This document shows, piece after piece, positions 1-12,710 of a stretch of DNA of 12,710 bases. Position 1 is the first letter of the stretch. The number at the start of each line of letters is the position of its first letter. The DNA comes from a virus. Taxonomy: Duplodnaviria > Heunggongvirae > Uroviricota > Caudoviricetes. The stretch lies in the IMG/VR virus record IMGVR_UViG_2529292985_000033; one strand, 5' to 3'. Under the pieces are notes generated by a model. It was given only the letters and a program-made list of their open reading frames with translations, was not told the origin of the DNA and did no database searches. A program made the translations under genes and the position numbers.

Positions 1-966
1 ATGACCAATAATCCCCCTTCAGCACAGATTAAGCCCGGCGAGTATGGTTTCCCCCTCAAGTTAAAAGCCCGCTATGACAACTTTATTGGCGGCGAATGGG
101 TAGCCCCTGCCGATGGTGAGTATTACCAGAACCTGACGCCGGTGACTGGGCAGCTGCTGTGCGAAGTGGCGTCTTCGGGCAAACGAGACATCGATCTGGC
201 GCTAGATGCTGCGCACAAAGTGAAAGATAAATGGGCGCACACCTCGGTGCAGGATCGCGCGGCGATTCTGTTTAAGATTGCCGATCGAATGGAACAAAAC
301 CTCGAGCTGTTAGCGACAGCTGAAACCTGGGATAACGGCAAACCCATTCGCGAAACCAGTGCTGCCGACGTGCCGCTGGCGATTGATCATTTTCGCTATT
401 TCGCCTCGTGTATTCGGGCGCAGGAAGGTGGGATCAGTGAAGTTGATAGCGAAACCGTGGCCTATCATTTCCATGAACCGTTAGGCGTGGTGGGGCAGAT
501 TATCCCGTGGAACTTCCCGCTGCTGATGGCGAGCTGGAAAATGGCTCCCGCGCTGGCGGCGGGCAACTGTGTGGTGCTGAAACCCGCACGTCTTACCCCG
601 CTTTCTGTACTGCTGCTAATGGAAATTGTCGGTGATTTACTGCCGCCGGGCGTGGTGAACGTGGTCAATGGCGCAGGTGGGGAAATTGGCGAATATCTGG
701 CGACCTCGAAACGCATCGCCAAAGTGGCGTTTACCGGCTCAACGGAAGTGGGCCAACAAATTATGCAATACGCAACGCAAAACATTATTCCGGTGACGCT
801 GGAGTTGGGCGGTAAGTCGCCAAATATCTTCTTTGCTGATGTGATGGATGAAGAAGATGCCTTTTTCGATAAAGCGCTGGAAGGCTTTGCACTGTTTGCC
901 TTTAACCAGGGCGAAGTTTGCACCTGTCCGAGTCGTGCTTTAGTGCAGGAATCTATCTACGAACGC
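1..966 (+). pseudogene. aldB: aldB 5' fragment (aldehyde dehydrogenase B), interrupted after codon 322 by IS1
   Basis: Translation from position 1 matches my recollection of E. coli AldB up to ...[10 protein letters not shown]. From 967 the frame continues into the IS1 terminal repeat ([26 protein letters not shown]), which is not AldB sequence. Confidence 0.9.
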
Positions 967-981
967 GGTAATGACTCCAAC

Positions 982-1485
982 TTACTGATAGTGTTTTATG
1001 TTCAGATAATGCCCGATGACCTTGTCATGCAGCTCCACCGATTTTGAGAACGACAGTGACTTCCGTCCCAGCCTTGCCAGATGTTGTCTCAGATTCAGAT
1101 TATGTCGCTCAATGCGCTGAGTGTAACGCTTGCTGATAACGTGCAGCTTTCCCTTCAGGCGTGATTCATACAGCGGCCAGCCATCCGTCATCCATACCAC
1201 GACCTCAAAGGCCGACAGCAGGCTCAGAAGACGCTCCAGTGTGGCCAGAGTGCGTTCACCGAAGACGTGCGCCACAACCGTCCTCCGTATCCTGTCATAC
1301 GCGTAAAACAGCCAGCGCTGACGTGATTTAGCACCGACGTAGCCCCACTGTTCGTCCATTTCAGCGCAGACAATCACATCACTGCCCGGTTGTATGCGCG
1401 AGGTTACCGACTGCGGCCTGAGTTTTTTAAGTGACGGAAAACCGTGTTGAGGCCAACGCCCATAATGCGTGCACTGGCGCGACAT
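982..1485 (-). CDS. insB: IS1 transposase InsB-frame ORF (iso-IS1 variant)
   Basis: 167-aa ORF with recognisable IS1 InsB sequence (…[21 protein letters not shown]…[52 protein letters not shown]…). Confidence 0.85.
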
Positions 1486-5425: not shown

Positions 5426-5461
5426 AAAATCAATATAAACAGCCCCTCCGGAGAGGGGCTG
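5426..5461 (-). terminator. Intrinsic terminator-like hairpin (9-bp stem CAGCCCCTC/GAGGGGCTG, 4-nt loop) followed on the minus strand by a U-rich tract
   Basis: Perfect inverted repeat at 5440-5448 / 5453-5461. The plus strand has an A-rich tract at 5426-5439, so the minus-strand RNA reads hairpin then UUUAUAUUGAUUUU. Confidence 0.5.
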
Positions 5462-5830
5462 GAGAGTGGCGCTATGTGCCATTGCATGGTGCCGGGTGCC
5501 TCCCGGTAAATTCAGCCTGTCTACTGAATTTGCATGTTCTCTGGATCATACACTTTGCCAGATGCCCCGCCGCTGAGGGGGATTCACCATGCGATGTAAT
5601 TTTTAACAAATTCTCCGGCAGCCAGACAATCATCAAGCTGTGGAATTGTGAGGTATTTAAAAATTTCAACGGGTAACTGATACCCTGCTAATCGCCTGAT
5701 GCTTTCTTTTTCAGCAACGGGAAAGCAACAACCACCACACCCGCCACCAAAACATCATCAGACAGCACCGACATTATCCGGCTGCTGAAGTCCACCATCA
5801 CCACCAGAAACAACAGGAGTGCAACCACAG

Positions 5831-5887: not shown

Positions 5888-5964
5888 TGGACCGCCATCG
5901 AGAACTCGAACCCCGCGCAACCAGCTTCGAAGGCTGGCGCTCTATCCCGATGAGCTAATGGCGG
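5888..5964 (-). tRNA. argN: tRNA-Arg, anticodon UCG (77 nt)
   Basis: Manual cloverleaf: acceptor CCGCCAT/ATGGCGG, D-stem GCTC/GAGC, anticodon stem CCAGC/GCTGG, loop CTTCGAA, T-loop TTCGAGT, 3' TCCA. Symbol by synteny only. Confidence 0.75.
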
Positions 5965-5971
5965 TATGTGA

Positions 5972-6047
5972 TGGTGGCCCTTGCTGGATTTGAACCAGCG
6001 ACCTGGCGATTATGAGTCGCTCGCTCTCACCACTGAGCTAAAGGGCC
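5972..6047 (-). tRNA. ileZ: tRNA-Ile2 (anticodon CAU, lysidine type; automatic tools may call it tRNA-Met), 76 nt
   Basis: Minus strand GGCCCTTTAGCTCAGTGGTGAGAGCGAGCGACTCATAATCGCCAGGTCGCTGGTTCAAATCCAGCAAGGGCCACCA closely resembles E. coli ileX-type tRNA, with anticodon loop CTCATAA and CCA end. Confidence 0.85.
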
Positions 6048-10686: not shown

Positions 10687-10717
10687 AAAATAAAAACAAA
10701 AACCCGCCGAAGCGGGT
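10687..10717 (-). terminator. Intrinsic terminator at the 3' end of the hok mRNA (stem ACCCGC/GCGGGT, loop CGAA, then U-rich tract)
   Basis: Hairpin at 10702-10717 with a plus-strand A-rich run at 10687-10701. Confidence 0.55.
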
Positions 10718-10722
10718 TAAGT

Positions 10723-10736
10723 GCGGGTGCGTTGAG
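10723..10736 (-). promoter_or_regulatory. hok mRNA 3' fbi-like element, complementary to the predicted mRNA 5' end (11102-11114)
   Basis: Plus strand GCGGGTGCGTTGAG (10723-10736) matches the reverse complement of CTCAAGCACCCGC (11102-11114) except for one bulged base, giving a ~13-bp long-range 5'/3' pairing as in the hok fbi/tac architecture. Confidence 0.5.
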
Positions 10737-10786
10737 AATGCCTGCCACATCAGAGGTGGCGAGGGATTTCTCCCTCGCCGGGTCTC

Positions 10787-10942
10787 TTACTCCTCAGGTT
10801 CGTAAGCTGTGAAGACAGCGACCTCCGTCTGGCCGGTTCGGATTCGTACCTCGCAGAGGTCTTTCCTCGTTACCAGTGCCGTCACAATGACGGTTAAACA
10901 GATGACGATCAGGGCGATTAGCATCGCCTTTTGCTGCTTCAT
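10787..10942 (-). CDS. hokD: HokD (RelF) type I toxin, 51 aa
   Basis: MKQQKAMLIALIVICLTVIVTALVTRKDLCEVRIRTGQTEVAVFTAYEPEE matches HokD as I recall it. The track ORF extends 19 codons upstream in frame to 10999. Confidence 0.9.
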   Translation of the reverse strand: MKQQKAMLIALIVICLTVIVTALVTRKDLCEVRIRTGQTEVAVFTAYEPEE

Positions 10943-11118
10943 AGCCTGCTTCTCCTTGCCTTTCGGCACGTAAGAGGCTAACCTACGTGTGTAGAGCATA
11001 GATATGGCCTCAGATTAATGTTAAGCGTCTTGCCGGACGCGTAATGTTAACTGGGGCTTTTCTCTATCTGCCTTTTGGTGTTCATGCCTGAGACAGATAG
11101 CCTCAAGCACCCGCTGCA

Positions 11119-11146
11119 ATTCTACTTAACTCTCCTTTTCCCGCAA
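11119..11146 (-). promoter_or_regulatory. Candidate hok mRNA promoter (-35 TTGCGG, 16-nt spacer, -10 TAGAAT)
   Basis: Minus strand reads TTGCGGgaaaaggagagttaagTAGAAT. The predicted start near 11112 coincides with the tac-like element and gives a transcript of about 420 nt to the terminator. Confidence 0.45.
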
Positions 11147-11153
11147 ACCGTTT

Positions 11154-11237
11154 TTATCCCCAGCGGCAAATCGAATACACCACCAGCGCCACCGCCATCG
11201 CAATTCCTACCGTTGTTAATGCTTCAGGCCAGGTCAT
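11154..11237 (-). CDS. Candidate 27-aa hydrophobic peptide (MTWPEALTTVGIAMAVALVVYSICRWG)
   Basis: Its ATG overlaps the stop of the upstream 77-aa ORF (ATGA), suggesting translational coupling. It has a single predicted transmembrane-like stretch. It is below the ORF-track size cutoff and was found by manual translation. Confidence 0.3.
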   Translation of the reverse strand: MTWPEALTTVGIAMAVALVVYSICRWG

Positions 11238-11467
11238 CGTAAAATATCCTCCACGCTTATCAGTCCGTTCCGCTCCAGATAACTCATCGCCTTATCCGGT
11301 AATTTGCAGTCTGGCTTCGCTTTCCTCAGTTGCCAGGTTAACTGCTTTACCAGCATGGTTAACTCATCGACCAGACGCTGATATCCCACTGGTTTGTATT
11401 CATGCAATTTACCGGCTGGCTCTGCTGCCAGCGATACCAGTGCGATTTCCAGAACAGCAATATCCAT
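11234..11467 (-). CDS. Hypothetical 77-aa ORF (MDIAVLEIALVSLAAEPAGKLHEYK…ISVEDILR), possibly the 3' part of a gene interrupted by IS2
   Basis: The ATG at 11465-11467 lies 3 bp from the IS2 end with no SD. The track ORF starts 10 codons further upstream, inside IS2. No family recognised. Confidence 0.45.
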   Translation of the reverse strand: MDIAVLEIALVSLAAEPAGKLHEYKPVGYQRLVDELTMLVKQLTWQLRKAKPDCKLPDKAMSYLERNGLISVEDILR

Positions 11468-11481
11468 CTTTGGATTTGCCC

Positions 11482-12387
11482 CTATATTTCCAGACATCTG
11501 TTATCACTTAACCCATTACAAGCCCGCTGCCGCAGATATTCCCGTGGCGAGCGATAACCCAGCGCACTATGCGGATGCCATTCGTTATAATGCTCGAACG
11601 CCTCTGCAAGGTTCTTTGCTGCCGTTAACCCGTCTGGTTTGGGCATGATACTGATGTAGTCACGCTTTATCGTTTTCACGAAGCTCTCTGCTATTCCGTT
11701 ACTCTCCGGACTCCGCACCGCCGTGTTCTTCGGTTCAAGTCCCAACATCCGGGCGAACTGGCGTGTTTCATTAGCCCGGTAGCATGAACCATTATCCGTC
11801 AGCCACTCCACTGGAGACGACGGAAGATCGTTGCCGAAGCGGCGTTCCACCGCTCCCAGCATGACGTCCTGTACTGTTTCACTGTTGAAGCCGCCGGTAG
11901 TCACCGCCCAGTGCAGTGCCTCACGATCACAGCAGTCCAGCGCGAACGTGACACGCAGTCTCTCTCCGTTATCACAGCAGAACTCGAACCCGTCAGAGCA
12001 CCATCGCTGATTGCTTTCTTTCACGGCCACTCTGCCTGTATGTGCCCGTTTCGATGGTGGTACAGCAGGTTTTCGCTCAAGCAACAGCGCATTCTGGCGC
12101 ATGATCCGGTAAACACGTTTGGCATTGATCGCAGGCATACCATCAAGTTCTGCCTGTCTGCGAAGCAGCGCCCATACCCGACGATAACCATACGTGGGCA
12201 GCTCTCCGATAACATGGTGTATACGGAGAAGCACATCCGTATCATCAGTGTGACGACTGCGGCGGCCATCCATCCAGTCATCGGTTCGTCTGAGAATGAC
12301 GTGCAACTGCGCACGCGACACCCGGAGACAACGGCTGACTAAGCTTACTCCCCATCCCCGGGCAATAAGGGCGCGTGCGCTATCCAC
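11482..12387 (-). CDS. insD: IS2 transposase OrfB (InsD), copy 2 (E to G substitution relative to copy 1)
   Basis: 301-aa ORF identical to copy 1 except PKPDELT to PKPDGLT. Confidence 0.9.
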
Positions 12388-12710
12388 TTTTTTGCCCGTC
12401 CATATTCAACGGCTTCTTTGAGGAGTTCATTTTCCATCGTTTTCTTGCCGAGCAGGCGCTGGAGTTCTTTAATCTGCTTCATGGCGGCAGCAAGTTCAGA
12501 GGCAGGAACAACCTGTTCTCCGGCGGCCACAGCAGTAAGACTTCCTTCCTGGTATTGCTTACGCCAGAGAAATAACTGGCTGGCTGCTACACCATGTTGC
12601 CGGGCAACGAGGGAGACCGTCATCCCCGGTTCAAAGCTCTGCTGAACAATTGCGATCTTTTCCTGTGTGGTACGCCGTCTGCGTTTCTCCGGCCCTAAGA
12701 CATCAATCAT
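12345..12710 (-). CDS. insC: IS2 OrfA (InsC), copy 2; start codon is the last codon of the window
   Basis: 121-aa ORF identical to copy 1 InsC. Confidence 0.9.

Follow-up and report, generated by a model that had tools for sequence, protein, structure and literature searches.

In Escherichia coli K-12 the toxin gene hokD (relF) lies in the relB-relE-hokD operon of the Qin prophage. The DNA analysed here (the window, 12,710 nt, IMG/VR record IMGVR_UViG_2529292985_000033, a virus assigned to the Caudoviricetes) carries a copy of the same gene, and it raises the question whether this copy is likewise isolated or is embedded in a regulated hok/sok-type locus, as the original prediction had proposed from the bare letters. 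All of the elements named in that proposal were found at the positions given for them, and the stretch 10687-11146 very probably represents a hok/mok/sok type I toxin-antitoxin module of the hokD/hokW lineage in which no structural part is missing; it lies within a decayed lambdoid prophage, in the early-right ("nin") region. As regards membership of the hok/sok family, every sequence-level trait that was open to test was found. The locus is nevertheless an ordinary and already known one: the literature already covers the module, its folding switch and the homologue in a prophage, and E. coli strains commonly have the exact leader. The features on which the following sections draw are:

10787-10942, minus strand: hok toxin ORF (HokD, 51 aa), Pfam PF01848 HOK_GEF
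10787-10999, minus strand: mok-type ORF (70 aa), in frame with hok and sharing its stop, from the list of open reading frames
11119-11146, minus strand: hok mRNA promoter, read directly; -35 TTGCGG (11146-11141), 16-nt spacer, -10 TAGAAT (11124-11119)
10693-11112, minus strand: predicted full-length hok (hokD-type) mRNA, about 420 nt, from G11112 to the T run past the terminator, placed by position 1 of the Rfam model and the conserved 5' end
11101-11112, minus strand: tac (translational activator) element, GGGUGCUUGAGG, predicted to pair with 10725-10737 in the full-length and with 11053-11059 in the truncated RNA
11053-11059, minus strand: ucb or anti-Shine-Dalgarno box, AAGCCCC, from the folds of the full-length and 3'-truncated RNA
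10758-10779, minus strand: conserved 3' UTR hairpin, GGCGAGGGAGAAAUCCCUCGCC, from mapping the whole fold onto the alignment
10725-10737, minus strand: fbi (fold-back inhibition) element, UCUCAACGCACCC, paired with tac in the minimum-energy fold
10693-10718, minus strand: intrinsic terminator, stem 10718-10701 followed by a T run, from the terminator scan and present as a hairpin in the folds
10956-10984, plus strand: Sok promoter, read directly; -35 TTGCCT (10956-10961), 17-nt spacer, -10 TAACCT (10979-10984)
10991-11061, plus strand: predicted Sok-type antisense RNA, 71 nt, from gapless alignment to sokW of phage 933W and from its fold

Reading frames and the K-12 copy of hokD

The toxin matches the Pfam family PF01848 (HOK_GEF) with E = 2.9e-23 (81.6 bits, cutoff 22), and the protein is 100% identical to HokD of K-12. 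Its ORF is preceded by the ribosome-binding site AAGGAG at 10957-10952. The longer mok-type frame begins with an ATG at 10999-10997 behind a GAGG Shine-Dalgarno sequence (11011-11008), a region which, as TGAGG/CGAGG, is invariant in 45 aligned hok loci, and the layout of the two frames is the same as that of the annotated mokW/hokW of phage 933W. In E. coli 042 the same HokD accession (WP_000813254.1) stands behind an identical leader, and the hokD CDS is the sole annotation there. Near the C-terminus of Hok, the minus strand carries the motif UACGAA (10799-10804; Tyr47 codon UAC at 10804-10802), which is invariant in 45 of the 45 aligned hok loci. This tyrosine site is the target of A-to-I editing by TadA, which changes Tyr to Cys in hokB and, at a low level, in hokC, hokD and hokE (PMC12214031).

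Genomes of the K-12 type match the window only from 10956 to 10600. Apart from the identical 51-aa toxin, K-12 shares the hok ribosome-binding site, the 3' UTR, fbi, the terminator, rem and the DUF968 gene (ydfU) with about 98% identity from 10956 downward. Its homology, however, starts only 14 nt before the hok ATG, with the breakpoint falling in the -35 element of the Sok promoter, and the sequence upstream is devoid of the promoter, tac, ucb, the mok start, the -10 element of the Sok promoter and Sok. The place of the leader is taken by relE, directly upstream of hokD, and fbi is kept in K-12 as an orphan without its partner. When the K-12 relBE-hokD locus was searched with the Rfam model RF01794, no match was obtained. 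Conversely, the relBE-hokD (relBEF) arrangement is absent from the locus studied here, where the sequence upstream of hokD is unrelated to relE. The statement in the original prediction that K-12 hokD sits in the relBEF operon without these elements was therefore accurate (homology only from 10956, relE upstream, no match to RF01794), and the comparison with K-12 that it called for places the present copy in a different context. The truncation of the K-12 locus agrees with the report that hokD of this strain was inactivated by a genomic rearrangement (PMC12214031). A relE-hokD junction of the K-12 type (that of our reference locus L001) was also seen in Kluyvera sp. CHPC 1.2972 (L034), upstream of a HokD homologue with 70% identity; the truncated relBE-hokD form is thus not confined to E. 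coli K-12.

Promoters, folding of the hok transcript and the predicted Sok antisense RNA

The promoter-like element TTGCGG-16-TAGAAT noticed at the outset is present as described, and 933W has the identical sequence ahead of its annotated mokW/hokW. Each of the other hok loci examined carries a hexamer resembling a -10 element 6-7 nt upstream of the conserved GGG start. On the opposite strand, the -10 element of the Sok promoter ends 6 nt before the start that matches annotated sokW, and an R1-type locus carries TTGCGC-17-TATCCT at the same position of its antisense strand. A scan for consensus promoters listed neither of the two, one hexamer of each having only three of six matches; because these consensus scores are weak, we accept the hok and Sok promoters on homology, position and conservation. 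The sites that the scan did list number two, against a chance expectation of 1.0 ± 0.9. One of them, TTGAAG-18-TAGAAT (10678-10649, minus strand), is located just past the hok terminator and could be a promoter serving rem, and the other, TTAACA-18-TATGCT (11024-10995, minus strand), falls within the hok leader.

The hok transcript most likely starts at G11112, as suggested by homology with the R1-type leader and by the start of the Rfam model, and the corresponding 5' sequence GGGYGCUUGAG is conserved in the 45 hok loci. The complementarity between the two ends of the transcript involves GCGGGTGCTTGAG (11114-11102) and CTCAACGCACCCGC (10736-10723), with one bulged C. It had been claimed that the predicted start coincides with this 13-nt upstream element; the element itself is real, but a start at G11112 leaves its positions 11114-11113 probably untranscribed, which calls for a minor correction. 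At the other end the terminator stem comprises 7 bp and is G+C-rich.

In the model developed for plasmid R1, pairing of tac with fbi closes the full-length mRNA while ucb holds the mok Shine-Dalgarno sequence, and 3' trimming leads to tac/ucb pairing, by which the Shine-Dalgarno sequence is freed and Sok can bind (PMC9841398). Folding of the minus-strand RNA, which had been suggested as a check on the present locus, gave a minimum-energy structure in which the 5' end is paired with the 3' element and the molecule is closed. The fold of the 428-nt transcript has -173.8 kcal/mol, compared to -130.3 ± 5.4 for shuffled sequences (z = -8.06), and the duplex between the 12-nt 5' end and the 3' UTR has -19.2 kcal/mol, a value reached by 17 of 2,000 dinucleotide shuffles of the UTR. 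The full-length fold also contains the pairs C11013:G11051, U11012:A11052 and G11011:C11053, that is, the mok Shine-Dalgarno region is held by part of ucb. When the RNA was cut in silico at 10740 or 10745, tac paired with AAGCCCC (11059-11053), U11109 being bulged, and UGAGG (11012-11008) was left unpaired, whereas cuts at 10750 or 10755 yielded a different minimum-energy fold. Since the outcome depends on the position of the 3' cut, the modelled tac/ucb refolding is supportive, rather than proof, of a switch like the one published for R1 hok.

We gathered 64 related loci, drawing on genomes of E. coli, on plasmids and phages and, across bacteria, on a single genome for each species. The alignment comprised 45 distinct hok transcripts, which came from Escherichia, Shigella, Kluyvera, Citrobacter, Pseudocitrobacter, Photorhabdus, Pantoea and R1-type plasmids. 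Over these 45 loci the 11-bp tac/fbi helix has 91.8% of its cells paired, against 27-54% when the partners were slid, and its pair 4 is U-A in 28, C-G in 13 and U-G in 3 loci; tac is nearly invariant. Mapping of the whole minimum-energy fold onto the same alignment gave 81.6% paired cells (37-45% in the slid controls), with 52 pairs changing on both sides (24-35 in the controls). The support for tac/fbi is understated by this count, because the MAFFT register is off in the distal half of the helix for loci lacking the bulged C (Photorhabdus), so that pairs 8 and 10 seem unpaired; by eye, GGGCGCUUGAG and CUCAAGCGCCC of Photorhabdus are perfectly complementary. On the tac/ucb pairing covariation is uninformative, since ucb is invariant or nearly so in the 45 loci. 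An unrestricted RNAduplex comparison of 100 nt upstream with 170 nt downstream across loci returned long, uninformative duplexes and was abandoned in favour of the motif-anchored alignment. The fbi/tac arrangement, originally proposed from complementarity within the one sequence, is thus supported both by folding and by covariation over 45 loci.

The 3' UTR hairpin (helices 20-21 of the mapped fold) is 96-98% paired, with changes on both sides, and by analogy to the R1 model it likely forms the protective 3' end of the processed, translatable mRNA. In R1, the truncated hok mRNA loses its toxicity when bases in its last 3' stem-loop are substituted (PMC9841398). In E. coli ECMA0423 (CP178302.1, L012), a hokD gene with identical toxin has a degenerate 5' element, ATGTGGCTATGTGCC replacing GGGTGCTTGAGGCTATCTG, and hence a damaged tac; the regulatory region of this copy has decayed, and the genome holds intact copies as well.

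The predicted Sok RNA starts 7 nt after TAACCT, and its sequence complements the start codon and Shine-Dalgarno region of mok. It is predicted to fold (-30.7 kcal/mol, z = -4.28) into a long hairpin that is preceded by a 5' single-stranded tail of about 15 nt over the mok AUG and followed by a CUUUU tail. To the misc_RNA annotated as "SokW antisense RNA" in 933W it aligns without gaps, with 65 of 71 positions identical and all six differences in the first 16 nt. The suggestion that a plus-strand TTGCCT-17-TAACCT would give a Sok-like RNA across the upstream start is borne out to this extent: the promoter is present, and the predicted RNA is collinear with annotated sokW.

A search with the Rfam model RF01794 ("sok antitoxin, CssrC"), the family for which a match had been anticipated, scored 117.1 bits (gathering score 59) at 11112-10937 on the minus strand, covering the full model from 1 to 157. 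In every matching reference locus tested (R1-type, 933W, hokC, Klebsiella plasmids, Photorhabdus, Pantoea and Citrobacter; L002, L006, L007, L043, L049, L055 and L063) the match is on the hok-sense strand, extending from the 5' end of the mRNA to the hok ATG. Because it is always found on this strand, the model certifies a hok leader containing the Sok target and not the antisense RNA, for which the sokW alignment and the fold provide separate support. A conflict between the minus-strand match and a plus-strand Sok was considered and ruled out, as the orientation is the same in the R1-type locus. In general, Rfam "sok" matches should not be taken as indicating the strand of the antitoxin gene.

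Alternatively, the regulatory elements could be chance matches around an orphan hokD ORF, as in K-12 relBE-hokD, which exists without them; an equally good partner for a G+C-rich element of 12 nt did occur in those 17 of the 2,000 shuffled UTRs. This explanation is refuted by the Rfam score of 117 bits and the same-strand model matches in other loci, by the tac/fbi covariation and the conservation of the elements across genera, by their collinearity with annotated mokW/hokW/sokW and by an upstream region unrelated to relE, and we give it practically no weight.

Prophage setting and related systems

Downstream of hokD and on the same strand are found rem, a 92-aa ORF, a DUF968 (ydfU-like) gene, RusA, the antiterminator Q, a DNA methylase, two tRNAs, STnc100 and a NanS-p-like esterase, a gene context of the lambdoid early-right/late-left region as in Qin of K-12. 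The STnc100 sRNA match (130.6 bits) and the two tRNA genes (Arg-UCG and a CAU-anticodon tRNA) were located in the minus-strand segments 5431-5622 and 5888-6047, and their position downstream of the Q antiterminator is that seen in many lambdoid or Stx-type prophages.

Two copies of IS2 in direct orientation, 99.8% identical over 1240 nt (1568-2807 and 11471-12710), flank an 8.7-kb prophage remnant with hok/sok, Q and the tRNAs; the right copy extends past the end of the window. At the left end of the window a fragment of an aldehyde dehydrogenase gene (1-1047, plus strand) adjoins an IS1 transposase (982-1485, minus strand). We regard the prophage as a remnant because the IS2 pair brackets the region and because IS1 and the truncated aldehyde dehydrogenase gene lie at the left end, and the density of IS elements suggests a Shigella-like or otherwise IS-rich host. 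Disruption of the hok locus by the upstream IS2 was ruled out, since this element starts at 11471, 325 nt upstream of the -35, and all elements of the module are intact. An 87-aa ORF (11234-11497) starts within the IS2 end and has therefore a chimeric N-terminus. A hydrophobic ORF of 27 aa, MTWPEALTTVGIAMAVALVVYSICRWG (11154-11237, minus strand), terminates 7 nt ahead of the hok -35. Phage 933W, which has no annotated gene at this spot, conserves the 3' end of the ORF together with the spacer, and the product may be a small membrane protein that has escaped annotation.

Phage 933W (GenBank AF125520) and the Sakai prophage Sp5 carry hokW/mokW/sokW, the nearest named system, which is 92.7% identical over 94% of the 464-nt locus. 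The locus of 933W shares the promoter, tac, ucb, the in-frame mok, fbi, the Sok hairpin and the lambdoid phage setting. HokW differs from the HokD studied here at 4 of 51 residues, the sequence after fbi is different, the downstream neighbour is a YgiW-like gene in 933W and rem here, and the prophage in the window is a remnant. The hokW-sokW pair is a working type I toxin-antitoxin system (Takada et al., 2021, PMC8621323): both RNAs were detected on northern blots, with sokW detected in the 933W-like Sp5 prophage, mitomycin C causes sokW to fall and HokW to rise, and loss of hokW-sokW halves the release of phage after mitomycin C (PMC8621323).

With hok/sok (parB) of plasmid R1, the reference system, the locus has in common the architecture and, as predicted here, the folding switch, mok-coupled translation and a Sok antisense to the mok start, and RF01794 matches both the R1-type locus and the one described here. 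The R1 copy resides on a plasmid, whereas ours is found in a prophage. The tac sequence is GGCGC in R1 but GGGUGC in our locus, and fbi carries the compensating change. The Sok-target hairpin is extended here, and the alignment shows a toxin that has clearly diverged from that of R1. hokC/mokC (gef) and other chromosomal hok loci are alike in family, leader model and in-frame mok. Loci of the hokC type have about 80% nucleotide identity to the present one and a shorter Sok-target hairpin, and hokC occupies a core-chromosome site beside dnaJ instead of a prophage.

Proposed mode of action, activity and distribution

The mechanism that we propose is taken from the plasmid R1 model; its structural steps follow from folding in silico, and expression, processing, coupling and toxicity we infer by analogy. 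The weak promoter (11146-11119) would produce a stable mRNA of about 420 nt from G11112. In the full-length mRNA tac would pair with fbi (10725-10737) and AAGCCCC would partly hold the mok ribosome-binding site, and it is because of this closure and partial sequestration that the molecule is proposed to be neither translated nor bound by Sok. Slow 3' trimming would then remove fbi, whereupon tac would re-pair with AAGCCCC and the mok ribosome-binding site would open. Translation of mok would be coupled to that of the 51-aa membrane toxin HokD, and the short-lived antisense RNA of about 71 nt (10991-11061, plus strand) would cover the mok start and block translation for as long as it is still made. 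By analogy, the likely role of the module would be to penalise the loss or silencing of the prophage segment, or to help lysis upon induction as described for hokW-sokW. The latter may no longer apply here, since the prophage is a remnant between IS2 copies.

Whether a complete structure also means an active one has to be considered, as the chromosomal hokA, hokB and hokC loci are reported, as summarised in a preprint (bioRxiv 10.1101/2025.08.07.668861), to show neither post-segregational killing nor a response to rifampicin; completeness is therefore no guarantee of activity. The locus might accordingly be physiologically silent, with no killing on loss of Sok and no effect on the cell, and be carried as passenger DNA of the prophage remnant. 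Such silence would fit the degraded, IS-flanked state of the prophage and the promoters that are weak by consensus. It is difficult to reconcile, however, with a toxin ORF, two ribosome-binding sites, tac, ucb, fbi and a Sok hairpin that are all intact and clearly conserved, and with a leader that is 100% identical in many unrelated E. coli strains. Moreover, the close homologue hokW-sokW is active, and HokD itself is toxic when expressed, as stated in the same preprint (bioRxiv 10.1101/2025.08.07.668861). We consider a silent locus improbable for these reasons, and favour a complete module that, by analogy, is potentially active.

Among near-identical loci of the hokD/hokW type, pairwise differences peak in about 20 nt around the mok start (~11007-10990; columns ~126-150 of alignment A1). 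The same stretch constitutes the 5' recognition tail of Sok, and the six positions at which the present Sok differs from sokW all fall in it; the hok ORF and tac hardly vary. Between paralogues of a single Photorhabdus genome, too, most differences lie around the mok start and the Sok tail. This clustering is only a mildly new lead and could reflect selection for modules that do not cross-react. That diversifying selection on the tail makes each Sok specific for its own hok mRNA is a tentative idea, which we rate as possible though somewhat doubtful. If it were true, several hok/sok modules on prophages and plasmids of one cell could not protect against one another's loss.

A recent survey found hok to be enriched in prophages (bioRxiv 10.1101/2025.08.07.668861). 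The promoter and leader of the present locus (204 nt, 11146-10943) are 100% identical in E. coli 042, ABU 83972, NCTC86 and others, and of the 5,426 complete E. coli genomes 4,205 contain at least 80% of this leader, usually more than once. The rarity of a complete copy that the original prediction had implied is contradicted by these numbers, complete copies being the rule in E. coli. In the literature we found no mention of "sokD" together with "hokD", and in open-access papers the complete form seems to go without the name sokD. PGAP annotation labels the hokD ORF only, with no entries for mok, Sok or the regulatory RNA elements. The hokD gene of K-12 is a truncated exception, and the complete "hokD/sokD" form is present in most strains.
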